DNA from: Catajapyx aquilonaris
Lineage: Eukaryota
DNA length: 49,275 nucleotides
Direction of reading: 5' to 3'
Assembly: GCA_000934665.2 (NCBI GenBank)
Contig: KZ538763.1
Location: forward strand, 1-49,275
The notes below the pieces were generated by a model. That model was not told the origin of the DNA and did not search any database. It worked only from the letters and a program-made list of their open reading frames with translations. The first letter of the stretch is position 1; each line of letters begins with the position of its first letter. A program made the translations under genes and the position numbers. Of the stretch, positions 20,812 through 45,929 are shown piece after piece.

Positions 20812-23519
20812 TTACTCCAAAAACGGATATTTTGGTTGGTACTTTGGAACCTTTTTCCTGCTGCAGCACCTCTCAAGCACAAAAGCCAGGCAAGACGAAG
20901 TCAACCCGATCAGCCAGGCATAAAATATATTGGCTAACTTTCCCATGGTGACCAAACTTCCCTGGTAAGAATACATGGTTTCGTGATGATCTCGACGAAT
21001 CTTGTAATAATTTCTTAAAAAGTTGGCGTAGTTTATTCGGGACTCCATTTGGGACCAAATGGACATTTCCCACAGACGCATACAAATTGTGTTCGCCATG
21101 ACAAAAAATGTCGAGTCTCGACTGAGAGCCGGTCCCGAGTATATCTGACCAGCGGCAAAGTGTTGCCAAAACAGCAGCTGCACCTTTCCTTTCTCATCCA
21201 TAAAATTATCACGTTCACGATCAAATAACAGATCAGCGGTGAGGCAGGCGAATTCGTCTGTTCTGGCTCGTTCTAGGCAGTCATACATAGTTGGAACCGT
21301 AATTACCTGCTCAAACACAGCATTGAACATATGATCTTCATTATTTTGCAGCACGAGGGACATGGCTACTGTCACTAGCTCTGTTGCTCCCCAGGACATG
21401 TCCGATTCAAATAATTCTTTGAAATTTTGCGGGAGGTTTTCCAATGGTGGGTATGTAATGAACGACACGAGCTTTGACTTGTACAACGTAACTATTACTA
21501 TTGAGAACATTGAGAAAAATACTTTAAAAGTGCGATTTACGGCTGAATCTCGTGGCTGCTCTATTAGGATGCGAGAGAGGTGGGACAGCTGGGTCCCAAA
21601 CGAAGAGAGAATAACCTTGCAACTTTTCCGAGAAGGCTTCCTGTGGCTGTCACTATGCAGGATGTGCAGAAAGAAAGAAGACAAGATCAGTGTGACTAGG
21701 AGCAAGAGCCACATTCCAGGAGAATAAGGTTGGAAAATGAGGTACCACTTGATGTCAGGTAGTGGTGTACGGGTGACAAACCCTGGGGCAAGATAGAAGT
21801 AGGGATAGACCAACCTTGTTGCCCTAAGAGATATATCTGAAAAATAGGTAGCCACTGCCATATCAATCACACCTGCTACCACCTCATAAGATATTCCTGT
21901 AAGGCTACCATTTGGGTGCAATTCATTCAAGCTGAGTTGGTGCTCAACAACCTGTATTACTACATTTAAACACTCCTCCAGAAGCAGCATCCCCTCTTCT
22001 AGAAATGTCATAAATTCATTCTTAATTTTTTTAAACCTCGCCGCCTCCACATCTACGTATTCAAAGTAGCCCACTTTAATTTTCTTCCCATTCATATCTC
22101 GAGGAGGACTAGGAAACAGACTTTGAGTATCGTGTTGGTGGGCATAGTGGAAGGGAGGATTGAGCGAGTCCTCCCCCGCCCTGCAGTAGTAACAGACGGT
22201 GTGAATGATGAGCTTCCTTTCCCTCCGACTGAACCTGGAGAGTGCCTTCAGCCTGATTCCCTTGGCCGGGTCCCCTAGAAGGATCGTTCCTCCAGCATCC
22301 GATGGACCAGTGAGGTGGATGAAGAAAGGGTCGTGGAGGTTCCTGGTGTCCACTAGAGAGGCTGTGGTGATGATGAGTTGTGGCAACTGGGAGGTGTTGG
22401 CGCAGAGGACGAGGGTGAGGGCGCATTGGCCCCCGGGCCAGGCCCTGCCCCTCATCTGGGGAGGCAGGGTCCGGAAGGAGAGGAGGTGCTCAGGTCTCCA
22501 CACCCAGGGGTGGTCACCTGGGTCAAAGGTGAAGGACTCCATCCTGCTGACCACCACGGGTCATCCCCCCTTCCTCTTCTCCCTTCCCTTCCCCTCTCCC
22601 CCTCCCATCGACCAGGCCAGCGTCTCTTGCATGGATGGACCCAGGGAATCAGGGTGGTCCATCCCCACAGACAGGGAACACTCCGGGTAGTGGGTGGTCA
22701 GGACGTCTCGAACTGCTGAGGACAACGCCAAGTCTTCCTCCTTCTTCCACACATCTGTCCCCGTCTGCCCAACCTGAATCAAAACATAAGCATCGCTGTC
22801 ACACTCCGCCTTTCCAATGCTGAACGGGATATGAATTCAGTGTGTTCCAACTCAATTACTAAAATGTCCAATCGTTCCCAATTTTTGCAATTCCGCTTTT
22901 TTTTATTGGCAGTTACGATTAGAAAATGGGAAAAATTACTTACTGACATTACTCTGAATAGAAGCCGTCATTCTGCCCTTGAAATGTGACATATTTCCAA
23001 ACTTTATTACCTTCAAAAAAAGTTTTTTTCGAAACATTTGTCTGACTGCAGGCACTTGCACCGACTTGCGCGAACAAAAATACGGTAAGTAAACTTGCAA
23101 AAGTAACATTCATAGAAAAATCATTATAATATTTTGTAGTAATATTATGTGTTTTTCAGTTAGCCAAGTGCAATCATGTCGTATTTGGACGATTTTTTTG
23201 TAGCAATGATTTATACTTAAACTCCAATGAAGTCGCGTTTAAATGCTTCTTTATTGGGCAAATATAATTAGCACCCTAGTTAGGATAACGGAGGTAACTC
23301 GTCCCTGGCCAAACTAGTTCTTCTCTTCTCGTATATATCAGACAGGTTATCCCCATGCCAGTTACCTGTCAGACAAGGCACAGGGCGACAGGGGTACTTC
23401 CAGCAAGAGATCATCCCTGATAAAAAAAAGGGCCTTACCTCCGGTGGTCTTCCCTTCCCTAGACAGAATAAGCAGGTGACAATCACCCAGCAGAGGAGAA
23501 TCCATGGTAAGAAAGACAT
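20812..23519 (-). CDS. Divergent ionotropic receptor A1; exons 23519-23439 and 22773-20812; single in-frame TGA at 22563-22561
   Basis: Exon 1 is a signal peptide, MSFLPWILLCWVIVTCLFCLGKGRPPE|GTAAGG; phase-0 intron to ttttgattcAG. Exon 2 has S1 (NGSLTGISYEVVAGVIDM), M1 (IFQPYSPGMW), an M3 SYTANLAAF-equivalent (LYKSKLVSFITYP), S2 and M4 (LANIFYAWLIGL). About 680 codons if the TGA is decoded; otherwise a pseudogene. Confidence 0.85.
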
Positions 23520-23645
23520 GATAGTGAAACCACTCCGGCTCCAAGAAGTAACTAGCTCTTACTGGAAGTGCTAAACAGGGTTTATTTTACGTGTCCAAGT
23601 GCACGTGTCATACTTGGATGTTTGCAAATTATTCAACACGCTTCC
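23520..23645 (-). promoter_or_regulatory. Conserved upstream region of IR A1 (homologous to 32660-32788 upstream of A2)
   Basis: Shared blocks TTGAATAATTTG, GTATGACA..ACTTGGAC and CGGAGTGGTTTCACTATC-ATG in both A genes. Confidence 0.55.
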
Positions 23646-24954
23646 GTCGTTTTGAAATATCCCGGAACACGGAAGTAGTTACTGTGTTCTAATTACGCGT
23701 AATTATACGTGAGGCCTCACTCACCCAAGGATACGACGTATCTCCCAAGCCGAATGAATGTCAAAGTCAAGTCCAGTATATAGGCACGTAACATTGACGC
23801 TCGTATAGTATCAACATGAGTATGAATTGGTATGAATATCCTTGGAAACTGATGATAACCAGCAATAATTCATGGTCTGCAAGAAATATTTCTCAATGGC
23901 CAGAAATATAGGCTCGAAACCACCAGTCATCGTGAGCTTGCTGCTTGCGAACACATCTTTAGACATATTGTCATTTCTTTGTACAGTCTCTAGAAGTCTA
24001 CCGAAATGGAAGCAATTTACTGGAAGAATTTGCGGGACTGTTCTGGATCAACATTGCAATAGTGAAAGATAAAATTGGTATTAATGAGGCGGTTCTGCAA
24101 AATTAATGAAAAAAGAGAATATGTAAATATGAATCTGACCATATTTCCAAAATTCAATAAAATGTCGATCAAGGTTCAATTCCGCTTATATACGACTTTC
24201 AAAAATACTAACAAAACAAGTTACAATAAAGAACGGACTCAAAGGGGACATTATGTTGTGCATCTTTAAATCGCTTTATTTCCACTAGTAATGCAGGACA
24301 CATTTCGTTCTAGGAATTTTGATTCAATCTTGGCATGAATTCCATGGGTCATATCTCGCTATCCATAGTAGCCGCCTGCAGTCAACCTTTAAGCACTCAT
24401 GAAAGTGGTGAAAATATCGGTGCAATAACTTATGTAATGTAACTTGTCTTCCTAGCAATAAGCACTTAACACTTTGTACCTCTTTGTACAGAACCTTTAC
24501 CTCCAACTACTCAGTTAATACCCTAAAAGGTTAGATGTAGATCTAATACCTTTTTCAAGGTTCCAATGGTGCCGTGTTCAAGAAAATGACCATCGCTCAT
24601 GTATAGGCTATATAATTTGTATACCACAGGAGTCGCACTCGTAACCCCAAACATATTTTATTATTAATGCCACCTAGCACATTGGATACGTAAACAACGT
24701 TATCTTGAAAATGGTGTCACTTGCCTTCATGATACAGCATACAGTGTAAAAATTAGGTTATTGTCCTAAAAGCAGTTTTGAATAATATATGACGACAATA
24801 TTGAAGCTATTTAGCTGTGCTTTCAAATCACCAGACTTGATCATATAAGCTCATAGCAAAATCTACTATGTAATTTTCGAGTCCCATTATGGGGATTTCA
24901 TATACCAGACCCTGCTTGGGCCAAACCTCTTCAGTGCATTCCAGACATATAGAC

Positions 24955-25688
24955 ATGGAAGGCTGCGGCATGTGGTTGCTTGCAGGCCTCCTCACTCTGG
25001 CCAGAGTTCAGGCTGGGAAAATGGACATAAGTGGAATATTCTTAGTGAAGGCAAAGTGGTCTCTTTCCTGACCTGGCCTCCTAGGGAAACGGTTCCGACC
25101 ACTCTTCCAGAGTTAGCCGATTCCAACTGGAGGGTACAAATGGCGTTCATGGATTATTTAGTTCTTCATCATGTAGCATCCACATCAAACAACACTTTTG
25201 TGAATAAGATATTAGACACTCTCTCTATAGCCGAGAGCCTCCCTCATTGTTTAGACAAAACATTCAGTGAGAAGATAGCTTGTATCGGGCTCAACTGGTT
25301 CATAGATCCGGAACTCTATCGGTACAGGCCAGAGGAAGGTGAGCTTCTTGTTCAGTTCGCTGAGGATAAGATATTTTCTAGATACACATTCGCAGTCTTC
25401 TCCAGAGGAAATGCCCCGTTATTGCACGCTGTCGACAAATATTATATCAGAGTAATGGAAGAAGCCAATCTGTTTCATAAATTTCTCCAAGACGAACGTT
25501 ATGGGAAACTGTTGAAAAATTTGAAAACTATTATTGTATTATGGAAGGCGAGTATTGATCACATAATGGCAGATGAAATTGTGGACGTTTACAAGTTGTC
25601 AGCAGTTTTTAATATGTGGCTTTTGGGTCTGGGGTTCAGTTTCGTAGTTTTTGCTGTGGAAAGTATGAGATGCGTTAAATCTGTATAG
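24955..25688 (+). pseudogene. Ionotropic receptor B0, internally deleted pseudogene
   Basis: Signal peptide MEGCGMWLLAGLLTLARVQAG is fused out of frame, at about 25048-25051, directly to GKVVSFLTWPP (M3). About 1.25 kb is missing relative to B1/B2; the S2-M4 portion is still open. Confidence 0.88.
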
Positions 25689-26619
25689 AAAAAGCCACGA
25701 AAACTAACAATAGATTTTAAATAAAATGTCATCCAAGGGAAGGAGCGACACGTATCGACAGCAGGAATGCTTACAGACGATTCGAAACTCATTATTGACT
25801 GCAATATGACTGTGATCGCTCAGCAAATGAGGGAATCAATAATTTGAATTTTATGTGTTAGGCCTGTAAGGTACATTATATTGTATGATACATCATAATA
25901 TCCGAAACATTAGAAGCAAGCCATGGTTCCATTAACGTTAAATGAGAATTTTTAAAATTTACATAAAGCAATGGGGTCCTAGGCCACATTTTGCAAACCC
26001 ATGTTAAAAAATCGTCCTTATTTTAAATGAATTTTGGTGTTTTTTTGTTTGAAGAAATAAATGTTACGGTGCTATAAATTGAATTGCAACTAACATGAAT
26101 CAATTTATTGATGTTTTATCCATGCTTTCATGCCACAAAGTCTATCTTAGAGAATTTTACATAATAGATAAACATGAGTAATTTACTAGTGCATTTTATT
26201 CGTGACAGTAATTTTCAGGATACCATTTCCTTCTTAAATTAGGTCCAATGGCCTTGGGATTTTAACAAAGCAAGAGTAATATCTACCAATTCAAGTAAGC
26301 CTCAAACGATCAAAGCTATTGGACTCAGGAGAGTCGCAGTCCAAATACTGCATAATTATCTTAAATTAGTAATGGCACCTAGCGCCTTATTACACATGGA
26401 ATGATTATTACCTTTCAAGATGTATCTTGTATTTATGAAAAATTGGACTAAAATTAATAGTTGGCCAAAAGGCAGCTTTGAATAATACATAACAACCATA
26501 TTGCAGGTTTGTTGCTTCGGTCCCAAATACGGGCAGCACGAACTGACTTGTAATTATCACCGTTTCATACACCAGACCCTGCAAGTACCAATTTTTTCCA
26601 GTTTGTTTCCGACCTAGAC

Positions 26620-28630
26620 ATGGAAGGCTTCGGCATGTGCTTGCTTGCAGGCGTCCTTACTCTGGCCACAGTTCAGGCTGGGAAAATGGACCCAAACGGA
26701 ATATTTATTGTAAAAGAAGGTGGCGTGAGTGAAGTGGACATGTTGGAGGAGTTGGTTCAACATATACGCTCCAAAGGGAGGATCTGAAGTCGTGTGCTTT
26801 GGTCCTGTCCACAGAATCTGATCCATCTGCAACTACTGTTGGCCTCCATAAAATATTGGCGGGAGACAATCGGACAGGTACCTCCCATCCTTCTCAGTGC
26901 AAATGACCACCTTTCCCCACTCCTTTGGAGTCTACCCGTGGCTGACCAAGCAGGAGGAAATGCTGGACTTCAGGACTGTCCCTCCGGACATCCTGTCCCG
27001 GGTGTGGTCCGGACTGCCCTGCACCCTTCACCTCGTCCTTCCTTCCACTCCTTCTTCCTTCCCACAGCTGCTCATGTTCACCGCCTCTCTGGTCAACATG
27101 TCCCCTGGACAGGACAGGTTCATGGTCCACTTTCAGTCTCCATACAAGACGAGTGAAGTGCACCGAGTGATGACCTCACCACCTGCCAGTGCACTCAGGC
27201 TGAAAGTGTTCACCAGCATGGAATCGGGACAGATTCGGGTGGAGACGGTATGTTTCTTCTGTGGACAAGGTGGACAACCCCACATTCAAAAGCTTGGACA
27301 CGTCCGTAAAGGAAGTAAAATTAATCTAAATCCACTATTGAACAATAACGAGCACGACTTGCACAACAAACGTGTAAGAATTGGTACTTTTTTCAACTTT
27401 GACGTGGAGAAAATTAGGAAATTGAAGCGAGAAAACAGAGAAATGGAGCTAACTTTACTTGAGCGAATGTTCATAACTTGTGAAGAATTATTACATGGGA
27501 TTATTGTTCTTGAATACATGGCCATCAAAGAGGCAACATTTGACTATCGAAATTCAAACGGATCATGGGAAGGACAGACGGGATATATTGTACGGGATCA
27601 AGCAGATGTAATGGCCCTTCACTTTCTCAATGACGACACCCTGCAGTTCCTCTTGAACAGTCCTCCCACCCTGTTCGGTTATGGGACATTTCTAACAAGA
27701 CGACCTCGTGGGATTGTGACTTGGAAGTTCATTTTCGAACCATACGATGGGTCATTTTGGGTTGTGTTTCTATTCACTATTATAGCTTGTGCCGTCTCAC
27801 TTTACATGCTCATCAAGTTTAATCGAAATCGTCCAAAAAACATGACCATATTAGAGTCGATGGGATTGGTCCTCAGAGAAATGGTCGAGCAACCCCACAA
27901 CTATGCCAATGTAATTCCTTTGTTGCTTGCGGTATCGTTTTGTTTCTTCTCAGCAGTGGTCACCTGTGGGTACAAAGGCAAAGTGGTCTCCTTCCTGACC
28001 TGGCCCCCTAGGGAAAAGGTTCCGACCAATCCAAAGGAGCTGGCCGATTCTAATTGGAGAGTGCAAGTGAGCTTGGTTGATTATTTCCTTCTGAAACATG
28101 TCGCATCCTTTTCAAATGACATGTCAATAAGAAAGATTTTAGACACCCTTGAAATTGCCGAAAGTTTGTCGGATTGTCTAGAGAAAACATCGAAGGAGCA
28201 GATAGCATGTGCCGGAATTAATTTGTTTCTGCAGCTAGAGCTGTACCGGTACAAAGGCGATGATGGTCATCTTCGGCTTCAGTTTTCTGAGGAGATAACA
28301 CTCTCTACCTATGCTTTCGCCATTACATCCAGAGCTAATTCGCCGTTAATGCATGCTGTGGAGAAATATTGCGTCCGAATTTTAACAGAAGCCAATCTGG
28401 CTGAAAAATTCTTGCAAGATGAGCTTTACGTGAAGCTTCTTAAAAATCTGAAAGCTGTAATTGACTTGGAAAATATAAACAAAGATCGCGTAAATGAAGA
28501 TGAAATTGTAGATCTTCATAAGATTTCGGCCGTATTTAACATCTGGCTTGTCGGTCTTGGTGTTAGTTGCGTGGCTTTTGTAGTAGAAAATTTCAAAGTT
28601 AGCACACCATGTGAAAGAATGTTCCCATAA
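26620..28630 (+). pseudogene. Ionotropic receptor B1, intronless CDS with two 2-bp insertions near the 5' end
   Basis: ATG at 26620 (MEGFGMCLLAGVLTLATVQAG). Relative to B2 there is an extra TA at 26763-26766 (stop TGA at 26785-26787) and an extra GA at 26863-26866. The downstream 577-aa ORF is uninterrupted, with NGSWEG, IFEPYD, GYKGKVVSFLT and M4 motifs. Confidence 0.85.
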
Positions 28631-29270
28631 TATTGAAACCATCAACGATATTCATTATGTTATTATACCTAACAGTTTATACATTTTACACGGTATTTCA
28701 ATATTACACTGATTATGGCGTTGTTTTTCTGAAATTTGTTTCGCCTCATTTCCATGTCGTATGGTAAGTATAGCATATTGAAATTGTTCTTATTACTCCA
28801 AGTTTGGGATCCCAACTTTTTAGTCCAATTTATATCCCTCTTTTGATGAATTCCATCGAGCTCTGGGTATGTCCAATGAGCTTGGGATAAATAAAATACA
28901 TGGGTAATAGCTTGTCTTACTATTACGGCGATAGCAATCGGGCTAGAATCCATTAGGAAAGTTGCGCTGCATGGCCCCAAACATATTGCATTATGAATGA
29001 CAACTATAGCCTTGGATTAAAAAAAGAGCTTTGCCTCCCTAGTCGTACTCCTTTTCTTCGTAATAAATTATTGGCCTAAAATTAGTAGTTGTCCTAAAAG
29101 CTGATTTGAATAATGTATAGCAGCAAAGCAATTTAGCTTTGGTCCCAAATGGTCAGACATGTTCACATGCTGGGTGCATGAGTGCCTTGTAATTGGCTCT
29201 GAGGTGGCTTTCATACTGTACAACAGATCCTGCAAGCACCAATTTTTTCCAGTTTGTATCCGACCTAGAC

Positions 29271-31281
29271 ATGGAAGGCGTCGGTATGTGCTTGCTTGCA
29301 GGCGTCCTTACTCTGGCCATAGTTCAGGCTGGGAAAATGGACCCAAACGGAATATCTATTGTAAAAGAAGGTGGCGTGAGTGAAGTGGACATGTTGAAGG
29401 ACTTGGTTCAACATACGCTCCAAAGGGAGGATTTGAAGTCGTGTGCTTTGGTCCTGTCCGCAGAATCGGATCCATCTGCAACTACTGTTGGCCTCCATAA
29501 AGTATTGGCGGGACAATCGGACAGGTACCTCCCATCCTTCTCAGTGCAAATGACCACCTTTCCCCACTCCTTCGGAGACTACCCCTGGCTGACCAAGCAG
29601 GAGGAAATGCTGGACTTCAGGACTGTCCCTCCGGACATCCTGTCCCGGGTGTGGTCCGGACTGCCCTGCACCCTTCACCTCATCTTTCCTTCCACTCCTT
29701 CTTCCTTCCCACAGCTGCTCATGTTCACCGCCTCTCTGGTCAACATGTCCCCTGGACAGGACAGGTTCATGGTCCACTTTCAGTCTCCATACAAGACGAG
29801 TGAAGTGCACCGAGTGATGACCTCACCACCTGCCAGTGCACTCAGGCTGAATGTGTTCACCAGCATGGATTCGGGGCAGATTAAAATGGAGACGGTATGT
29901 TTCTTCTGTGGACAAGGTGGACAACCCCACATTCAAAAGCTTGGACACGTCCGTAAAGGAAATAAAGTTAACCTAAATACACTATTGAACAATAACGAGC
30001 ACGACTTGCACAACAAACGTGTAAGAATGGGCACTTTTGTAGAAATTGATGTGGAGAAAATAAGGAAGTTGAAGTTAGAAAGCAGAGAAATTGAACTTAA
30101 TTTTTTTGAGCGATTGTTCATGACCTGTGAAGAATTACTTCATGGAATCATTGTTCTTGAATACGTTGCCATCAAAGAAGCAAGATTAGACTATCGAAAT
30201 GCCAACGGATCATGGGAAGGGCTGACGGGACACCTTGTTCGGGATAAGGTGGATGTAATGTCGATTACCTTCGTTACTGACAAGTCGCTGCAGTTCATCT
30301 TGAATAGTCCACCCACCATGTTCGGGTTTGGAACATTTGTAACAAGACGACCCCATGGGATAGTAACTTGGAAGTTCATTTTCGAACCATACGAATGGTC
30401 CTTTTGGGCTGTGTTTATACTAACTACGTATTATAGCATGTACTTTGGCACTTTTCATGTTCACTAAGACAAATCGAAATGGTTCAAATAACATGGCCAT
30501 ATCGGAGTCAATGGGATTGGTCCTCAGAGAAATGGTCGAGCAACCCCAAAACTATGCCAATGTAATTCCTCTGTTGTTTGCGGTATCGTTTTGTTTCTTC
30601 TCAGCAGTGGTCATCTGTGGGTACAAAGGCAAAGTGGTCTCTTTCCTGACCTGGCCTCCTAGGGAAAAGGTTCCGAGCAATCCAAAGGAGCTGGCCGATT
30701 CTAATTGGCGAATGGAAACCAGCGTTTTCGAATATTTCCTTCTGAAATATATTGCGTCCGGTTCACACGACGCTTCAGTAACGAAAATTTTAGAGACCCT
30801 TGCACTTGCCGAAAGGGTGTCAGATTGTCTGGAAAAAACATCGAAGGAGCAGATAGCATGTGTCGGAGTCAACTTGTATCTGCAGCAAGAGATGTACCGG
30901 TACAGAAGCGATGATGGCCATCTTCGGCTTCAGTTTTCTGAGGAGAATACATTTCCTACTTATGCTTTCGCTGCTACATCCAGAGCTAATTCACCTTTGA
31001 TGTATGCTGTGGAGAAATATTGCGTCCGCATTTTGACAGAAGGCAATCTGGTTGAAAAATTCTTGCAAGATGAGGTTTATATGAAGCTTCTGAGAAACTT
31101 GAAAGCTATTATTGCCTTGGAAAATCTAAACAAAGATCAAGTAAATGCGGACGAAATTGTAGATCTTCACAAGATTTCGGCCGTATTTAACATTTGGCTT
31201 GTCGGACTTGGTGTCAGTTGCGTGGCTTTTGTAATGGAAATTTTCAAATCAAGAGCATCATGTGCAAAAATGCTCCCATAA
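29271..31281 (+). pseudogene. Ionotropic receptor B2, intronless CDS with one 4-bp insertion in M1
   Basis: ATG at 29271 with signal peptide. Open until ACT[ACGT]ATT at about 30425-30430, which shifts the frame relative to B1 (ACT ATT). The remaining 278-aa ORF is collinear with B1. Confidence 0.85.
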
Positions 31282-32659
31282 TACTGCAGCCATGCAATTT
31301 CGACTGGATTTTTGCAAGGTGTTATTAGACGATAAAAATGGCTCATCTCAACAAACGAAGTAACAATTGAACAGTTGTGTAACGGTTAACAATGCATTTG
31401 CACTAATTGCGCAGGATCCTCCGTCATGAATCCCATGAATGTGTCTATTTTTCTCGCATGTAAATTAAGAGTAACAATTATTACATGGTTCAGGGCGAGA
31501 TTTTTAACATTCGTTGTTTCTTAATTGTCAGGATGTTGTGCGTGTTATGTATGCCCTATTTGTTAATAGACCTAATTATCTTGTATATGGACACCTCGCC
31601 CCCTTTCAACATGTCATTATGTTCATTGTAATCATCACAATAAGTTCACGAATGACTAAATAAATGAATGGATGTAAGAATTAAAATGATTCACCTGGTA
31701 TGACTTTAGGCATTTTCAGGAGGATACACCTCTACAACTACGGGTGGAATATACCTTGTTTTTCCTAAAATAATACAGTATATTATTTCACCCTATGACA
31801 AATCCAGCTGAAGGGAGTGAATTCATCAAAAGTGACAGGAATAGTTTTGGTCCACTCGCAATCACCAGTTTTCCTATAGCTTTTGAGCTCACATTGACAG
31901 TATATGATTAGCCATGACTTTGACACTGACATTCACATGGCTTGGGGGATAAGCAGGTCTGAGGCCCCGTGTATATAATTAATTTGAGAGCAATCACTAC
32001 TGCCACGTTCTAGGCTATGCCAGCAGTACACAGAATATTCTCGACAGAAACGTGGTTGAATAATATATTCGTAAAAATCCAATGGTGCCAAGTAGACTTG
32101 GACATGTAGCTTACCGCGGCACTTCACTCAGGTCAATCTGATAATGCTAACAAATATATCCAACTCACTTGCCATGTAGAATACAGCAAATAAAGACGAT
32201 TTCTTGTAAACATAGAAAACTGATAATTTCTAAGATAATCTAAGTTTACCTAAACTCATCAAAATGATACACACTACCTGCAAGCATATTCATAGCGTTT
32301 CTTGAACCAACAAGTACCGCTGAGAAAAAAGGCAACTGTTATCGCAATGAAAAATAACCTCGAATATTAATAATATCGTGCAGTTTTAAAATAATATTAT
32401 AGCGTTCTTCATATTACACTACTCGTAATACAAATTAAACTTCTTGGTGCATTTTGTTTCGAGGGACTATTGTTGTTGTTATGTTAGTCAGGGTTTTATT
32501 TCCAGGTGTACATAGGATTCCAAGCTTTGTCTTTGACACTGACATGACTTGGGAGATGATAATGAGGGAGTTTTATCGAGGCACCGTGCATAAGTAATTT
32601 GATGTTAATTACTGCTGTTGCTTTCAAGTCGATACCAGCACAGCGGAATAGTCTTGACA

Positions 32660-32788
32660 GAAAAGCATTGAATAATTTGTAAATATTCCACGTATGGTAT
32701 GACAAGTCTACTTGGACGTGTAGCTCACTACTATAGGTACTTGCAATAACAGTTTGTTACTCCTTGGTATCGGAGTGGTTTCACTATC
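32660..32788 (+). promoter_or_regulatory. Conserved upstream region of IR A2
   Basis: Same blocks as upstream of A1, with TTGAATAAT at 32668-32676. Confidence 0.55.
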
Positions 32789-35700
32789 ATGTCCTCCTTT
32801 CCATGGCTGCGGCTCTTCTGGGTGATGGTAGCCATCTTCTCTGGAGGGAAAGGAACACCACCACAGGTAAGGTTTCATTGTCATTTTTGTCAAGAATATT
32901 ATCTTTTGAATGTTTCCCTTGGTCTACGTAGTCTGAAAGGTAACTGACGTAGCAGGGTTATAATGAGGGATTCTATTCAACCTAGGTAGCACGTAATTAT
33001 TTGGTAACACATAAAAATAACTCTTCAAAAGTTAGTTCTTGAAAAGAAGCAGGTTAGCAAAAAATAATAATTGCAAATCACTCCAGACATGAAATCTGTC
33101 GGCTTCAGGATTGAATGTGTCATTATTAACATGAAAGAGGATTATGAAACAACTGGCTTCGGCCCGGACCTTTTTCCAATAGCGAATAGTTCCTATTCTG
33201 ACAACCCAATATAATTCTCTGTAATTCGTCTTATTGTGAAGAGATGAAGAATCAATATATGTGACACATGTGACACAATAATATCAAGTTGTGAAAAAAG
33301 AGAGAGAAATTACAAGTTGTGAGTTGATAAAATACTTAGCCAAGATAATTTTAATGGTGGAAAATGACAAGTAAGGCGCAACCAATTAAAATGTTAGATT
33401 CGTGAAAATGCCAATTGAGAGGCACATAAACGAATGTCTTGTGGAAAATACACACAAGCATGCTGTATTGTTTGCGCAACAGAAATAGCTATTACATAGA
33501 TATGCAACGTGCATAGCGAAATGAGTGAAGTAAGTCTCTCAGTGAAAATAGTGGTTCAAATCTGATGGTAAAATGGAATAGTCCCAATGAAAAAAAAGTG
33601 TCAGTGAAGTAACAGTGAAACCCAGTATCAGGAAAACTGATCCAGATCAAGTGACAAGCAGAAACTAGTGAATCGTTAATGGAGTCATTAACGCTGCAAA
33701 ACAATGGTGATGACCGAGTGCCAAAACAAGTTGTTTTTTTCGTGCATGAGTGTGTCCTAGATTGTGCGCATAATATTGCCGGAAATAACACGATAAGAAT
33801 AGTAGACATACATACTGTGAATCGCAACAGACCATTCGAAAACATTTTCTTTTGTGGGTGTGAAGAACAAGTGCCTGTCTGTAATCATTGTTGATTTTGG
33901 TGATAATTTTCGAGGGAAGTAATTTTTTGTAATTTCTTTGAATAAAGGTATGCCTAATAATTGTACTATCCCTATTAGCAAATTCGTGGCAGAAATAGCG
34001 CATTCCTGGAAGTTTTTGTTTTACTCCTGGATTGCGTCATCACTTTAAATTTCGCCACCTTACAGTAATTTTTCCGTAATTGCACCTACCGTACCGCCCC
34101 TAAAATGGTTAGTTGGAACGAACTGTGTTAATGTCCCATTCAGCATGGGGAAAGCAGAGTGTGATGGTGTTGCTTATGTTTTGATTCAGGTGGGGCAGAC
34201 GGGGACCGATGTGTGGAAGAAGGAGGAAGACTTGGCGTTGTCCTCAGCAGTTCGAGACGTCCTGACCACCCACTACCCGGAGTGTTCCCTGTCTGTGGGG
34301 ATGGACCACCCTGATTCCCTGGGTCCATCCATGCAAGAGACGCTGGCCTGGATGATGGGAGGGGGAGAGGGGAAGGGAAGGGAGAAGAGGAAGGGGGGAT
34401 GACCCGTGGTGGTCAGCAGGATGGAGTCCTTCACCTTTGACCCAGGTGACCACCCCTGGGTGTGGAGACCTGAGCACCTCCTCTCCTTCCGGACCCTGCC
34501 TCCCCAGATGAGGGGCAGGGCCTGGCCCGGGGGCCAATGCGCCCTCACCCTCGTCCTCTGCGCCAACACCTCCCTGTTGCCACAACTCATCGTCACCACA
34601 GCCTCTCTAGTGGACACCAGGAACCACCACGACCCTTTCTTCATCCACCTCACTGGTCCATTGGATGGAGGAACGATCCTTCTGGAGGACCCGGCCAAGG
34701 GAATCAGGCTGAAGACACTCTCCAGGTTCAGTCGGAGGGAAAGGAAGCTCTTCATTCACACCGTCTGTTACTACTGCAAGGCGGGGGAGGACTCGCTCAA
34801 TCCTCCCTTCCACTATGCCCACCATCACGATACTCAAAGTCTGTTTCCTAGTCCACCTCGAGACATGAATGGGAAGAAAATTACTTTAGGCTATCTTGAA
34901 CAAATAGATGTGGAAGGGGCGAGGTTAAAAAAGATTAAGGATGAACATGTGACGTTTGTGGAGGATATTATACTTTTGCTAGAGGAAATCTTTAACATAG
35001 TAATAGTGTGTGTTGAGCACAAACTTAATTTTAATGAATTGCACCCCAATGGTAGCCTTGCGGGAATATCACAAGAAGTGGCAACAGGTGTAATTGATAT
35101 TGCAGGCAATGGAATTTTTTCAGATACAGCTCTAAAGGCAACAATGATGGCCCATCCCATCTTTTATACAGGGCCAGGGTTTGCCACCCGGACACCACGA
35201 CCTGACATCAAGTGGTACCTCATTTTCCAGCCTTATTCTCCTACAATGTGGCTCGTGCTGCTCCTCAACCTCATCTTGTCCTCTTTCATTCTGAATATCC
35301 TGCACAGGGACAATCCCATCAGGAAACACTTCCGTAAAAATCCCACGATTGTGCTATTTGTGCATTCGTTTGGGAGCCAGCTGTCCTACCTGTCTCGCAT
35401 CCTACTAGAGCAGCCACGAGATTCAGCCAGAAAATCACGAATCCTCACTTTTAATGCATTTTTCTTAATGTTCTCAACCGTAATAGTTACCTTGTACAAG
35501 TCAAAGCTCGTGTCATTTATTACATATCCGCCACTGGAGAAGCTCCCGCAAGATTTCTATGAATTATTCGAATCAGGCATGTCATGGGGAGCAACAGAGT
35601 TTGCAGTTGTTGTTGCCTCCATCTTGATTCAAAACAGTGAAAATCCGTTATACAAGGATATGTTTGAGCAGGTAATTATAGTTCCAACTATGTACGATTG

Positions 35701-36163
35701 CCTAGAAAGAGCTCGAGTTGACGAATTTGCCTGCATGACAGTCGATCTGTTATTTGATCGAGAATGTGACAGTTTCATGGATGATAAAGGGAAGCTTCAG
35801 ATCCTATTTAGGCATCACTTTCCCTATGGTCAGGCATACACGGGGCCATCTCTCAGTCGAGATGCCATTTACTTTGTCGAAATGAACACAGTTTCTTTGA
35901 AGCTGTTGGAAGGGTCCATTTCATCCCAAATGGAATCGCAAATAAATTACCGCAACTTCTTAAGAAATTACTTCAAAATTCGTCAAGAACATAACAAAAC
36001 CATGTATTCTGAGCAGGGAAGCTTGATCACCATGGGAAAGTTGGCCAATATATTTTATGTCTGGCTGATCGGTTTAACTTCGTCTTCTCTGGTTTTTGCG
36101 CTTGAGGGATGTTGCAGGAAAAAGATGATAAATAACCAGCCCATCTATCCATTTTTGAGATAA
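32789..36163 (+). CDS. Divergent ionotropic receptor A2; exons 32789-32866 and 34190-36163; single in-frame TGA at 34400-34402
   Basis: Exon 1 MSSFPWLRLFWVMVAIFSGGKGTPPQ|GTAAGG (homologous to A1 exon 1, not in the ORF track); phase-0 intron to ttttgattcAG at 34189. Same domain motifs as A1; about 683 codons if the TGA is decoded. Confidence 0.85.
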
Positions 36164-36469
36164 CTTTCCGCATTCTTGTAATTGCCCTTTTCATGCAAGT
36201 GTAAATCCTTCTTGATTAATTTGTTAGAATATGATTATACACTCTCACAAGCACAGACTGTTAGAACCCATCAAGGATAATTATTAACTTATGAGAAAAA
36301 ACACCTCTTTATATACTGTATGTTCCTGGATAATTTATGTAAAAATGTAATCCTAAATGTGTACAAGTATGAAATAAAAGCCTTAGAATGCGTATGCTTA
36401 TGATGCGTATAATAACAATTGATAACAAAATAACAAAACCTTTCCATATTTTTTGCCATTGCGTTACTT

Positions 36470-37010
36470 CTCTCCTCCGTGCATCTCGGTACTTCCTGCC
36501 TCACACGTTACATTTACTTTTTGCTCCACCGTACCTGATTTCGGTGTCCATTTGTCTCTGCCGCTTAGGCAAAATGTCAAGGAAACTCCACAGTTCCTAA
36601 TTCTTGCATCCGTTAGCTTTTGGACATAAGAAATGCCCCCAGTTCCCAGGACATTAGCCTTTGCGTCTGATTCGATACAGTCAGTTAAAACACTTTCCAA
36701 GAGTCAGTCAACAATTTGCATTTTCATATACTACAATGTATCTATTATGTAGCAGTCAGGTTCAATGTTAAAAATGAGAAGATGACGGACCCCGTGATTA
36801 GCATCAATGTAGTCCTGCTGCGTGGTTTCGAGCGACCGCTTGCCATAATCATTGACATCTGTGCACCACAAGTTGTCGCTAAAAACCCTGCAGTATATAC
36901 AGGGATGTTTTGAGTTGGCGCTCATTAGCCCCATAACAACAAGAATTTCATATCTCCTCTAATGACCAGATTTGTTGTTATCCGCTGCTGTCCATCAACC
37001 ACTACACCTG
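36470..37010 (-). mobile_element. Decayed DDE transposase fragment (RAG1/Transib/Chapaev-like)
   Basis: Translation across one frameshift and stops: GDMKF..VVMGLMSANSKHPCIYC...HGV...IFNIEPD..IIDTL*YMKMQIVD*LLE...IRNCGV. This matches the D-x-K...GL-x7-CxxC arrangement of RAG1/Transib-type transposases. Confidence 0.55.
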
Positions 37011-37957: not shown

Positions 37958-40900
37958 TTAATTGGCAAAAGTTTCTCCAAATGGAATCAATATTTCTTTG
38001 AACCTGGAGGCACGTAAACTCATTTCCTTCCAGTCGTCCACATTTGGATCATCCGGACACTCAGAAATCCACACATCTTTGTCAGCAACATTTTCTAGCA
38101 CAATTTTCCTCAAATTATCATTGGCGCTCAGACACCATATTGCCTGGACATCCCTGTGGCCAGAGAGTGTCCGAGTCAACTCCTGAGTTGGTCCAGACAA
38201 AACAGAGACTGTTCCAGATGGAATGTCTGAGTTTTCCGTAAACAAACGACCCAGCTCCAAGACAAGGTGTGGGTTCTGAGAAGGTGCAATGAGGACGACT
38301 GAATTTCCAGAGACTAGTGTCCAGGCCAGTGCGGAAACAATGGCCATTAAGCCACTGTCCACATCAGGACATATGATACCTATTATTCCCACAGGCTCGT
38401 CAAGCATGATTGCAGACAAACCAGGTCCGACCTGTTTATTCCGGCATCCAAAGTTATGCGTACCAGCTCGGAATAAGCACCGAACACACTTGTCCAACTT
38501 ATTGGCCCACTCATCCTGTGAGGTGGCGGAAAAGAGTGAGATCAAGTGGGAAGACTTGTTAGACATAGAGGTGGCCTGGTTGTACATTGCTTTAGATCGG
38601 ACTGCACCCGAGGACTGTGCCCAAGTGGACTTGGTGGCTCCTTCCACAGCGTTACGCACATCCTTTCTGAAATTGTCGTTTCAGTTGAATAACTCTCACT
38701 TGCATTGCCAGTAGTTACTCACCTGGATGCATGTGGCACAAGTGCTATCCTGTCACCTGATAAATTCCGGATTACCCTCCACAGTCCAGATTCAGCAAAC
38801 TTGGTCCCACCTCCGTAGATCATCGGAAATGAGGCCACGCTGCCACTTTGTCCTGGAACCAACACTTCTGGATTCTCCTCCCCCATAATCTCTGGTACAT
38901 ACGTCTGTACTTTTGACATGTAATCCAGAAGCAGGCGCTCCGGACATGATGTCTTGTGATTTATGTGGTGGTTGTTCAGCCACACATTATTTGTCTGGAA
39001 TATATGCAACGGTTCATTAGTTGTAGTGAGACTGTAAGTGCTTAGAAAACACAGCTTGTGGACAATCACATGCAACAAAACGTAGTGTCTCATGCCAAAT
39101 CCAAATGAGACAAGATTTTATGCTAACGATTACAATTTTTGGTAACCGACATATTTACAAAGTCTTTTAAAAAGTGTGCAATTTTCTGAAAATATACATG
39201 CAAAAAATAAATTAGGGAGTACCCAATCAGCTCAGTGATGCAAAATATTTCGCTGACCATTTTGCGCTTACTTTATTTTGGACTAGAGGAACAGTAAAAA
39301 AAATCTGTATCAAAATGTTGAGATGTCTTGAGAGGAGATTAACTACAATTGTCATGAGTATGATTATACCTTGAGAACTCCGGCTAATTCCATCCCAGGA
39401 CTGATATCTTCACTCCAAACGCTGATTCCACAATATCTTTTGCCCCCACTGTTGGCTAAATTGGCAGCTTCCTTGATTGTCCTAAACGGCAATACAACCA
39501 GCAACTGTCCTGTTTGGCACTGAGAGACTCGGCTGGCCGGTTGCGCCCCAATAATTAACGTTGGCGGAACAAAATCACCGCTCTCTCCGGAACACGCAGC
39601 CTGGACTACCTGCAAAATGATAATTTTAGTATTATGAATTAAATTGTGTAAATATGTAAAGCACACATGTATGGATCATGTACATGGCAGCAAGGAAACT
39701 GAACTAGGACCAGACTTGGGTCACTACTTGCAATAAACTACTGCACTACTGTGCGGAAAACAAAAGGACGATCTGACGTCATCATCACACAACAATATGA
39801 GTGAACAGTGTCAACAAAATGAACATATTGTTTACTCCTATTGTTGCATGAGAACGGAACAGAATGATGACGTCAGAGAGCCGTTTCGTTTTTTTTTCCG
39901 CAGCCACGAACCTTGACACCTTCTGATTCTGCTTCCTTCAGAATCTCCATAACATCGCGAGGATTGCAGCAGCCTGCAACGGACACATCTTGGTTCTTAT
40001 CTTTAAGCGGTCCCACTCTCAGCGAAGACACTTTGGCTTCCAGCCGACTGATGACTTTTCCTGATATGCTTTGCTGTACATAGATGTCCACTCCCATAGC
40101 CCCATGGCAGAGGGAGTCAACAAGGGTATCACAAGCCGAGTCGATATCTGCGGATTCCAGCACAACAGCAGCACTCTTGTACTTGCGCTCTGTTGGCAAA
40201 AAATAATAATTAAGGTACAATTACAGGAAATCTTTTATTGCGTCTACTTACCAATCACCACATTTCCAATTGCGGCCAGCTCAGCAGTGTACTGTGCTGA
40301 CCCGAAGACACTGATTTGGTTGGCTATTTGGAAGTTTGGTCTCTCTTGTGTCACAAGAACACTTATTACTCCAGAAGGAATCCTGATATGATCAATAAGT
40401 CACTCGTTAGCTACAGCAAAACAGTGCATGTGCTTTCAGTAGCATTGTTTCCTACACGGGACAGCTGAATTACAGACGCATACACTCACCCTGCCTCCTT
40501 ACACAGGTCGGCCAAAAGAAAGGATGAGAGACATGCCAATCTGGGCGGCACAATGACAATCCCATTTCCTGCCACCAAAGCCGCAACCAAACGATGCGCC
40601 AGGGAAAACACAGGTGAACTCTCTTCGCTGGACAAAACAACCACTCCGAGTGCCCTCCGCTTCCTCTCCCGGAATGACTCGCAAGTCTCCGCCCAAGACA
40701 CTCCCTCATACAAGGCAGCAACTAAGTCTGGCACATCCAAACGAGTCCTGTGGAAGGCACGGCCAGACTCCACACTTGCGGTGGACGCCAGAAGGGATGA
40801 ATGGCGCTCAACAGTGCGGGCCAACCTGTAACGACCTGCGTGAGCGAATGTGGTTACACTTCGGCTGACACGGTGACGAACCTGTGCATATGCCGTCCCA

Positions 40901-41869: not shown

Positions 41870-44800
41870 ATAAATAAGTGGCTCTGCTTGTGAACTCTCA
41901 AACACCTTTGGGTTTGATATTTTTTCTGGCAATGGGGGCAATTAAATAGTTTCTCCTCGAGGTGGGTTTCCAAATGTTCTTTCATGTCGCTTTTCTGACA
42001 AAACCTTCTCTGGCAAACTGGACAGCTAAATGGCAGTTCTCCCCAGTGTGTGTTCTGATATGCATTTTCAAATTATGTGCGCATCGAGACCTTCTCTGGC
42101 ATATGGGACAACTGAAGGGTCTTTCTCCCGTATGCGTCTTCATATGCCTATTCAAATGTCCGGCTTGGACGAATTTTTTTTTTGCATACATTGCAACAAA
42201 ACGGCATATCACCTGTGTGCCTTTTCATGTGAGCTATCAAAGAATATGCACTTCTCAAATTTTTCTGGCACACTTGGCATGTATAGCATGCCTTCCTTTC
42301 TGCTTCTGTCTTCCGTTCACCATGCACATGTGAGTCATTCTTCTCACAACCGTCATAAGCTCTCTTCTGCCTTTCCTGAAAAGTTAACAGCAATATGCAC
42401 CATTTTATCTTGTAGAGTAGATGTTTACAAAATTATAAACTAGTGGGAAACACTACATTTTAAAAACATATAGCTGCAACGTGTGTGAATTGCATTCATG
42501 TTCGAACAATAACATCTGTCATGATTACACATAGGCCTAGTTGTTATAGAGCAGGTTACTTGAAACAAACCTGTTTCGGAATATTCGCATTTGGCCGTCT
42601 CACAGTGTGTGCCAAAAAGTCGTTCTCATTTGCTTTGGCCAGTTGGAGCACACGCCATTATTACAAAGCTGTTTTAAGAAAAGGTCCTTTTCTCCATCAT
42701 GATTTTACAGACATGATTTTACAGACATGATTTTACCTGAGACAGTTGGTCGGAGAAATGTTCCTTCAAGATATGCTCCTCAATTACTTCTCGGTCTGGA
42801 AATAGCTTCCCGCAATGATCACACATGAGGATCCTGTCCAGAGACATGTCTGGATCCTTCTGCTGCTAAAAACAATGAGTTTAATTATTCATACTGATCA
42901 TAAACAGCAGTGTCGCCCACACTATATTATATCCAAAAATAAGTTACACCGTAAGCATGGGGGTAAGTGGAACCCAAGGGCAAAATAATATCAAACTGAA
43001 AAGTGTGTCCTGGGTGCAATGTGCCGGGGAACAATGTAAACGACTGGTGCAGCCAAGTGCTGCTAGGGCAGTTCATCATTCGCGCTAATGTTATGTAGAT
43101 AATATCATTATTTGTTCAATAAAATTATTTGAAATGCTTTCTGTCATTTCCCCTTGGCACTGCATCATTTTTGGACAGTTATTTGGGTAGTTCAGGGCTG
43201 GGGTCCACTTACCTCACATTTCAGGGCAAGTGGGACCCAGAGTCACCTACCATCTCTATTCCTGATGCACTTGGAGTGGTGTCCTGCTTTGAGTTTGTTT
43301 TCCTGTAACTCCTCAGAAATCTTCTAATTCGAGCCTCCTCCTCTGCATTCAGGATTAATCTTTCAGTGGCACACTTAGCAATTGAATGGCTTTCCCCACT
43401 GTGTGTCCTCACCTGGGCTCTCGAATAATGATTTCCCCGACCAAATCTTTTAGGGCAAAATTTGTAGCTGTATGACTTCTCCCCAGTGTGTCTTCTAGCC
43501 TTCAAATCATAATCCGTATCAAACCTTTTATGACATGTTGGACAATTGAATGGTTTCTCTCCAGAATGAGTTTTCATGTTATTAATAATAATAATTTTTC
43601 TAGCATATGTTAATATCTTCTGGCACTTATTGCAATCAAGTGGCACATCCCCTCTGTGCAATAATTTCATGTGAGATTTCCAATTATATGCACTAATCAA
43701 ATGTTTATGGCACACCTGGCATGCATATGCCTCCCTTTCTTCTTCTATCTTCCTTCCACTTTGCAAGCGAATGATTTCATTTGCATCATGAGCTCTCCAT
43801 TGTTGTCCCTGTGAAATGAGTAGCAAAATAAATAATTGTCACCTAGTAGTACCGTATACCAACATTTGCCAATATTGAAATAGTGATGACTTATAGGCCT
43901 AAGGAAACATACTTTTTCCCCCCAAACAGTATTGTAGCACATCTAGTTTTTTTGATGTGATTTTACAGAACATCATTATTTTTACCTTGAGTTGTTCGGA
44001 AGATTGTTCCTTCAAGATATGCTCCCCACTTTCTTCTCTTTCCAGAAAGTGTTTCCAACAGTGCTCACAGAGGAGAATCCGCTGCAGCTCTATGTCGAGA
44101 TCTTTAGTCTGCTAAAAACACAATTGTAATTCACAATGATGATATTACCACAACTTGTGACTTTTTACAAAAGATTCATTCACAGCATGCAGTATGTAAT
44201 CTGACATAATTATGATATTAGCAAATATTCATAATCATGAGTGCAGGTTCGTTTTTTACTTGCTCATTGTTTGACTGTAGACACACAGCATCAATAATTC
44301 TACAAGTATAAACTTGGCACTCCATGTAACTAATCAAACACGTATAACTATTCAATAATAAGAAGTTCGTGCCAAAAATAATTATTTTTCGACATGTAAT
44401 TTCCCTTAGAACGCACTCTTTTATTAAGAAGCATTTTAAAAATAGTTCCTTTGATATGATTCCACAAATCAACTTTTTACCTTTAGTTGTTTGGAGACAT
44501 GTTCCCTCAGGATATGCTGCTCAATTTCTTCTCGAGTAGAAAGTAATTTCCCGCAGTAAGCACAGAGGAGGACATTGTGGAGGGACATGCCGAGATCCTT
44601 CTGCTGACAAAAAGACCGATTTCAATTAGTCAAGAAGATCATATCACCATATCTCGCCACTTTTTACAACAGATTTCACTCACAAGCATGCATATCTATT
44701 ACCATGGATTCATGAAACCTGTACTGGGAGAATCATTTTGATGAACAAATCACCGCAATAAATTTTAAAAAATGTTAAACAATGCCAAGAGAATATATTT

Positions 44801-45613: not shown

Positions 45614-45859
45614 CGTGTAAATCTTGAGATCAAATGCCACTAATCAGTCACTGGTATTCTAAAAAGCGTAGGGAAAATAAATGCTCGGTGCTATACACCG
45701 ACCATTCTCTATAATATGTACTGGGATAACCTTCAGAGCATTGACTGTGAGTAAACTGGACCTATTCCTGACCCAGTACATTAATTGGTTGCTATAGGCA
45801 CAGTCTGGCCAATCCACACAGCTCACCATGCTTGACTTTCAATGTGGATGAATAATAAG

Positions 45860-45929
45860 AGCGATTTCCCAAAACAAGTTCAGTCCCATATGTTGCAATA
45901 TTGGACTGAACTTGTTTTGGGAAATCGCT
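45860..45929. repeat. Inverted repeat, 27-bp perfect arms, 16-nt spacer (mini-MITE)
   Basis: AGCGATTTCCCAAAACAAGTTCAGTCC / GGACTGAACTTGTTTTGGGAAATCGCT. Confidence 0.9.

Follow-up and report, generated by a model that had tools for sequence, protein, structure and literature searches.

The window analysed here is the whole of contig KZ538763.1 (49,275 bp; C1446 of a 285.6-Mb assembly in 20,583 contigs) of Catajapyx aquilonaris, and it carries five genes of the divergent ionotropic receptor (IR) type, A1, A2, B0, B1 and B2. In these genes and their relatives, silent homogenization is limited to the N-terminal domain, which is like a truncated amino-terminal domain (ATD), and, in some subfamilies, to a block covering the pore and M3. 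Trees of different segments conflict, and the homogenized segments, mainly the N-terminal ones, are GC-richer at silent sites. The genes are best explained, we conclude with good confidence, as old duplicates of divergent (tuning) IR genes under recurrent germline interlocus gene conversion that is segmental and GC-biased.

Results

A1 (minus strand) and A2 (plus strand) are transcribed outward, away from each other, and the B0-B1-B2 tandem (plus strand) lies between them. The A genes are split by one intron, which follows a signal-peptide-like exon 1; the B genes are intronless. The features are as follows.

20812..22773, minus strand: A1 exon 2 with N-terminal domain, S1, M1-M3, S2 and M4; in-frame TGA at codon 71
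22077..22792, minus strand: A1 homogenized tract, covering the intron end and the entire N-terminal domain
22561..22563, minus strand: A1 premature TGA, common to A2
23439..23519, minus strand: A1 exon 1, 27 codons and signal-peptide-like, with a GT..AG intron of 665 bp after it
24955..25688, plus strand: B0 remnant, ATG at 24955, with M3-S2-M4 left
26568..27381, plus strand: B1 homogenized tract, covering 5' flank, signal peptide and N-terminal domain
26620..28630, plus strand: B1, single exon
27852..28060, plus strand: B1 pore/M3 island
29219..30028, plus strand: B2 homogenized tract
29271..31281, plus strand: B2, single exon
30503..30710, plus strand: B2 pore/M3 island
32789..32866, plus strand: A2 exon 1, 26 codons and signal-peptide-like, with a GT..AG intron of 1323 bp after it
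34171..34883, plus strand: A2 homogenized tract
34190..36163, plus strand: A2 exon 2 with N-terminal domain, S1 (from 34883), M1-M3, S2 and M4; in-frame TGA at codon 71
34400..34402, plus strand: A2 premature TGA, common to A1

A2 34171-34883 and A1 22792-22077 differ, over about 713 bp, by 16 substitutions and a single 3-bp indel, with identical runs of up to 144 and 221 bp. The tract reaches from the intron end to the first strand of S1, and its 3' edge lies 3 codons past the junction of the N-terminal domain with S1. Synonymous divergence (dS) was 0.031 in the N-terminal domain versus 0.53 in the remainder of exon 2, and the proportion of silent differences (pS) was 0.02 versus 0.42 in the ligand-binding lobes (Fisher test against S1+S2, p = 3e-20). 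GC content at third codon positions (GC3) was 0.73/0.71 in the N-terminal block versus 0.43/0.46 outside it. Exon 1 has diverged (dS 0.53) and is not homogenized, and the introns have diverged until they can no longer be aligned; a recent whole-gene duplication is therefore excluded. Within the tract, the youngest sub-tract (34208-34574) holds a single two-base difference, and the next 308 bp hold 12 substitutions and the indel. No significant pore island was found in A1/A2 (pS 0.30 vs. 0.42, p = 0.11).

The B genes display both kinds of block. B1 26568-27381 and B2 29219-30028 are 93-100% identical per 100 bp, after which identity drops to 74-87%; the 3' edge lies 4 codons past the N-terminal/S1 junction. 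B1/B2 pS was 0.05 in the N-terminal domain, 0.39 in S1, 0.09 in pore/M3 and 0.31 in S2 (p = 1e-9 and 4e-4), and 0.34 in the lobes overall, and GC3 followed the same course (N-terminal 0.62/0.60, S1 0.38/0.40, pore 0.59/0.53). Over both window pairs, GC3 ranged from 0.60 to 0.73 in the N-terminal blocks, compared with 0.31-0.41 in the lobes S1 and S2. These data bear out the initial annotation, made from the letters of the window, in its description of near-identical blocks in both pairs, of an abrupt drop in identity at the start of S1, of a second B1/B2 island at the pore and of a higher GC content in the homogenized parts of the exon; uniform synonymous divergence along the genes is excluded.

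Homogenization extends beyond the window. The B2 core (29538-29837) recurs with 97-100% identity in an intact paralogue on contig C548 and in another on C961, so that four genes on three contigs share it at this level, while the lobes of the window pair are only 52-70% identical to those of the other two. A 40-nt core in the pore region, previously reported as common to B1, B2 and B0, does exist; the identity of B0 is 84-86% over 83 nt, and the C548 paralogue has most of the core as well. The core encodes the most conserved motif and cannot separate conversion from constraint. The C961 paralogue (L067, C961:38403-42269) is frameshifted after S1; of the five B-clade genes seen, four are broken and the C548 gene is the sole intact one.

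The assignment to the IRs was based on Atlas clusters and a structure model. Matches to PF00060 (Lig_chan) were weak, at 18.5-25.7 bits for A1, A2, B1 and the 3' piece of B2, below the curated cut-off of 30.8; the top Atlas clusters were arthropod IR-like (score 0.98), and a protein database search with A2 gave no match at E<=0.001 among 8000 candidates. The model of the intact C548 paralogue (pLDDT 84.7) matched ionotropic glutamate receptors (iGluRs; Foldseek E 1.6e-18; VIA Z 17.4, root-mean-square deviation 3.1, 234 aligned). As modelled, the family has the iGluR-type S1/S2 ligand-binding domain and channel fold. In full-length matches, with the domain inside the whole model, C548 was aligned with GluA2 from residue ~105-112 on. 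The N-terminal domain is predicted to be an alpha/beta domain of about 210 residues, short and atypical compared with a full ATD, and the modelled ligand-binding domain begins at residues ~249-251, which is where the 3' tract edges of both A and B fall. With one 5' intron in the A genes, none in the B genes and lineage-specific clusters, the genes fit divergent IRs. Such tuning IRs of arthropods have few and 5'-biased introns, expand in lineage-specific tandems and frequently become pseudogenes (Croset et al. 2010, PMC2924276; Ni 2021, PMC7882480), and the C. aquilonaris genes are like them in all of this and in the iGluR fold. They are unlike the known arthropod divergent IRs in that the N-terminal domain is better conserved than the lobes.

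To cover the family, two genome searches were run (at least 76 and at least 74 matches; 75 and 74 scored among 1339 and 1375 candidates). We aligned 137 sequences, of which 112 span both regions and yielded 56 independent pairs, chosen solely by the protein distance between their ligand lobes. We applied Fisher tests, change-point fits and approximately unbiased (AU) tests. In pairs of middle divergence (lobe pS 0.15-0.6), N-terminal pS was lower than lobe pS in all 20 of 20, under half of it in 13, and pore pS was under half in 8. The N-terminal value was also the lower one in 9 of 15 young pairs and in 15 of 21 near-saturated pairs, and under half in one of the latter. Bonferroni correction was passed by 19 of the 56 pairs, and every one of the 11 clusters displayed N-terminal homogenization. 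An independent origin in two subfamilies, as first proposed, thus gives way to a family-wide pattern. Nor is the N-terminal region the least conserved part, as had been assumed: identity across 34 singleton paralogues was 0.33 in the N-terminal domain, 0.26 in S1, 0.22 in S2 and 0.38 in the pore.

Pairs near saturation provide the extreme cases, with L074/L079 (contig C3232) at N-terminal pS 0.21 and lobes 0.77, and L036/L076 at 0.11 and 0.69. An 11-gene clade has N-terminal pS 0.03 where measurable; members of it (L034, L073, L081, L083, L084, L086, L087, L146 and L147) mostly start at contig ends within that domain or downstream of it, as though a constant block common to them had interrupted the assembly. 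L003 and L004 form a reverse mosaic, close in N-terminal domain, S1 and S2 (pS 0.03-0.15) and far apart in M1 and pore/M3 (0.55-0.67), which suggests a swapped membrane block.

In AU tests on three clades of other family members, the N-terminal and S1/S2 trees were rejected reciprocally in two clades and one way in the third. GC at fourfold degenerate sites (GC4) was flat in 44 singletons (0.50/0.46/0.49/0.47), and N-terminal homogenization followed the GC4 excess over the 11 clusters (rho -0.68, p = 0.02). Together with the 20 mid-divergence pairs, these results uphold the earlier proposal of segmental gene conversion with a GC-raising bias. They also bear on a reading without exchange, in which constraint at the nucleotide level (through codon usage, RNA structure or regulation) would preserve the similarity of the N-terminal coding region. 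The high GC3 of the blocks does lower the ceiling for silent divergence somewhat. However, between subfamilies the silent sites of the N-terminal domain have reached saturation (median pS 0.74 over 21 distant pairs), the tract extends into the intron or 5' flank, and broken genes share it, stop codon included. Because of the shared stop and the tree conflict, this reading is already largely refuted, and we find it scarcely credible.

The assembly itself was checked with read-derived contigs of four runs, compared with window 29000-36400. They come from one sample, probably the source of the assembly, and check the assembly only; as read contigs drop variants, they show presence only. Collapse of similar copies by a short-read assembler, with one consensus written into both, could in principle produce identical blocks: the assembly is fragmented, and several family members start at contig ends within the N-terminal domain. 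The depth of the A block also fits collapse, and in this respect counts against conversion. It was 41.5/25.6/40.4/41.4 against about 37/21/39-46/40 in unique flank, i.e. 1 to 1.2-fold, where about 1.6-fold was forecast for two copies (318/541 31-mers shared). Drop-out at 63% GC is a plausible but unproven cause. However, the A blocks differ by their 16 substitutions and indel. In the read contigs they appear as mosaics, specific to each run, of letters from A1 and A2; the reads thus contain both alleles, and this speaks against pure collapse. A1- and A2-specific S1 contigs each start within the shared A block. The B core contig had about 2.2-3-fold depth (96.8/63.7/95/86 vs. ~37/21/39/40), as expected for several real copies. 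Finally, collapse cannot raise silent-site GC nor yield a graded N-terminal pS of 0.02-0.3 over 20 pairs. We consider an assembly artefact highly improbable.

The reading frame is disrupted in all five window genes, which the initial annotation had not noticed. For these copies, in which conversion also seems to have transferred a stop codon, maintenance of a functional scaffold is therefore not supported. At codon 71 of exon 2, both A1 and A2 carry an in-frame TGA; Arg occupies this position in 16 of the 24 closest paralogues, and judged from the sequence the stop probably arose as CGA>TGA. It sits within the converted tract, in the youngest sub-tract. The lobes of A1 and A2 show dS 0.6-0.7 and dN/dS 0.3-0.5, and the stop therefore arose long after the duplication. 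Most simply, the second A copy would have received it by conversion. No differing letter was found at the TGA in the A-block read contigs of three runs, for which the lists are complete; for the fourth run 11 of 12 are listed. Inspection of the aligned A block by eye gave no GT..AG candidate for an intron that would remove the TGA. Both genes are otherwise open for >580 codons and might be working receptors if TGA-C were read through, which we think very unlikely. Just upstream of the shared TGA (A2 34353-34399, A1 22564-22610) lies a purine-rich in-frame stretch of about 10 extra codons that is missing from the closest paralogues.

Each B gene carries its own lesion. B0 has lost about 1.27 kb at ~25049, from the N-terminal domain to M2, out of frame and with a stop after 38 codons; the deletion joint (29355>30626) was present in 4/4 runs. 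B1 has 2-bp insertions at ~26762 and ~26863, missing in B2, C548 and C961, with a stop after 55 codons; they were not found among the 12 read-contig indel rows listed (21 more rows exist). In B2 a 4-bp insertion in M1 (30425-30428) shifts the frame, leaving a 398-aa product, and was matched exactly in 4/4 runs. The family is otherwise mostly intact, with 105 of the 137 aligned sequences open from the N-terminal domain to M4, in a set without B0 and without open reading frames of <300 codons, so that broken genes are under-sampled.

Several other elements were observed. A third A2-like copy, L029 (C10931:1-948), is 94.9% identical to window 35587-36532 over the end of S2-M4 and about 370 bp of 3' flank; it begins at the first base of its contig and is an allele or a recent partial duplicate. 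A 191-bp element at 31476-31666, 96% identical to part of contig C10931, is a small dispersed repeat. In the A2 intron, 33199-34186 is present in multiple copies (contig depth sums to about 3-4-fold), which probably reflects inserted repeats. Further along are an exon of the aldehyde dehydrogenase family (37958-38680, minus strand; Pfam Aldedh, E 2.6e-16), apparently degraded C2H2 zinc-finger repeats (41950-44650, minus strand) and an inverted repeat of 41 bp, 90% complementary, with a 6-nt loop (45851-45938).

Discussion

Recurrent conversion could have produced this pattern as follows. Conversion would continue only where paralogues remain alike over a long stretch and stop past some level of divergence, as theory also holds (PMC3924837). 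The N-terminal domain of ~700 bp, the longest contiguous conserved block, would stay convertible, and GC-biased repair would raise its GC content. The faster-evolving S1/S2 lobes would have diverged beyond the reach of conversion, perhaps helped by selection against overwritten ligand specificity. N-terminal conservation is probably due to docking on a co-receptor: cryo-electron microscopy (cryo-EM) shows that tuning-IR ATDs dock on the co-receptor ATD and that the gates of the pore are coupled (bioRxiv 10.64898/2026.09.30.755715). These contacts offer an explanation for the conservation seen in C. aquilonaris, although tuning ATDs are often poorly conserved across IRs generally (same source). 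Conversion would be blind to function: its latest tract in A1/A2 would have left both copies with a nonsense codon, and the B copies of the window are frameshifted.

Besides the depth of the A block, several results weigh against this account. The relation with GC was not significant for pore islands (rho -0.45, p = 0.17), and 30 genes without an N-terminal partner also had slightly higher N-terminal GC3 (0.54 vs. 0.49, 21/30). Clusters were defined with N-terminal similarity, which makes the cluster results partly circular, and some close pairs could be alleles. Per window, deep conservation predicts homogenization poorly (rho -0.27, p = 0.13), and a simple barrier model is therefore incomplete.

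For this last reason, a 5' polarity of conversion may contribute. Polarity gradients of conversion exist in other organisms. Taken alone, polarity would mean that double-strand breaks near the 5' end of genes start tracts that span the first long stretch of homology and weaken towards the 3' end, irrespective of domains. It agrees with homogenization that includes N-terminal windows of weak conservation but affects the best-conserved M3 window less, with a gradual climb in silent mismatch, from 0.02-0.10 to 0.3 within the first 320 codons, and with the mildly raised 5' GC3 of singletons. Against this, exon 1 of A1/A2 is not homogenized, and in a 25-gene clade (pS 0.22, 0.54, 0.18 and 0.43; GC4 0.84 in the pore) the pore/M3 islands lie 3' of a diverged S1. 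As a sufficient cause, polarity seems unlikely to us.

A variant of conversion rather than an alternative to it places the boundary mainly under selection: converted S1/S2 tracts would be purged as they erase ligand specificity (a Teshima-Innan divergence peak), and a homogenized ATD and pore would keep every paralogue compatible with a single co-receptor. The edges do lie <=4 codons from the structural start of the ligand-binding domain in both window pairs, and S1, which has an island on either side, is the segment that has diverged most (dS 0.56 vs. 0.15 and 0.29). Across 15 young pairs, pN/pS in the lobes (0.58) exceeded that of the N-terminal domain (0.44, p = 0.004) and that of the membrane parts (0.34, p = 1e-6), and the ATD and gate contacts described above point the same way. 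However, a fixed boundary at the start of S1 was rejected for the family, since the edge lies <=5 codons from the junction in only 4 of 21 pairs (range -102 to +48). The earlier suggestion that S1 and S2 actively diversify is not supported either: pooled dN/dS was 0.30-0.63 and exceeded 1 in no segment. Combinatorial shuffling of S1 and S2 as a general mechanism was likewise rejected, with reciprocal swaps in 1 of 64 genes at p<1e-3 and 3 at p<0.01. Moreover, the ligand-binding domain touches the co-receptor too (bioRxiv 10.64898/2026.09.30.755715), and a stop codon has spread into both A copies. We regard selection as the main determinant of the boundary as a serious possibility but lean against it. 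More tentative still, and in our view doubtful, is the idea that in an IR expansion hundreds strong, selection confines conversion to the co-receptor-docking surfaces (N-terminal domain and pore/M3) and purges it from the lobes, which would give a germline constant/variable repertoire with subfamilies defined by a common co-receptor interface.

Recurrent segmental conversion matters in several ways. Chemoreceptor families are usually modelled as gene birth and death with little conversion; a concerted N-terminal domain with non-concerted lobes would distort gene trees, the dating of duplications, tests for selection and assemblies made from short reads. The shared stop illustrates a cost of conversion, as one event can silence two long-diverged receptors. 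The pattern also points to surfaces likely to matter for co-receptor assembly, for which IR cryo-EM structures now allow comparison.

The initial annotation had likened the genes to antigen receptors. Immunoglobulins and T-cell receptors combine constant and variable regions, and only the outcome is alike, a shared scaffold with a variable binding part. The IRs have no shared constant exon; each gene has its own germline constant block, in the same exon as S1/S2. There is no sign of somatic rearrangement, conversion homogenizes the scaffold and does not diversify the binding part, lobe dN/dS is <1, and lobe swaps are as rare as stated (pooled, gene-level). The likeness therefore does not hold. 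Somatic conversion in antigen receptors is touched on in PMC3924837.

The closest known case is regional conversion in teleost protocadherins. The clustered protocadherins of fugu show regional conversion with a discrete boundary, silent identity and raised GC3 (Yu et al. 2007, PMC1852091). Paralogues that are mostly single-exon and in tandem, near-identity of one region within subfamilies, a discrete boundary, raised GC3 and divergent specificity-bearing domains are common to both systems. The IRs differ in that the constant part is N-terminal with an internal pore island, in chemosensory channels; in that tracts reach genes on other contigs and, with A1/A2, an inverted pair 11 kb apart; and in that identity is graded (pS 0.02-0.3), while in protocadherins it is >99%.

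Divergence peaks amid interlocus conversion are described for the primate red/green opsins and a Drosophila transporter pair (PMC3924837, PMC2588116). There, as here, the ligand-tuning region is divergent between homogenized flanks and conversion can spread loss-of-function alleles; those peaks, however, are narrow, flanked by homogenized introns and backed by orthologues, whereas here most of the gene is divergent and the introns cannot be aligned. Among chemoreceptors, conversion in Drosophila IR paralogues was reported for a few groups and with minimal effect (PMC4122928), unlike the present family, where it marks most subfamilies sampled. Two Polistes odorant receptor arrays gave no detectable conversion according to the available part of the report (PMC8383895), and a literature search of titles and abstract openings, without most subscription journals and supplements, found no report of domain-restricted conversion in IRs. 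The mechanism is a known one; it is unusually pervasive here for a chemoreceptor family, and the stop codon that A1 and A2 have in common, most simply through conversion, is a clear example of it.

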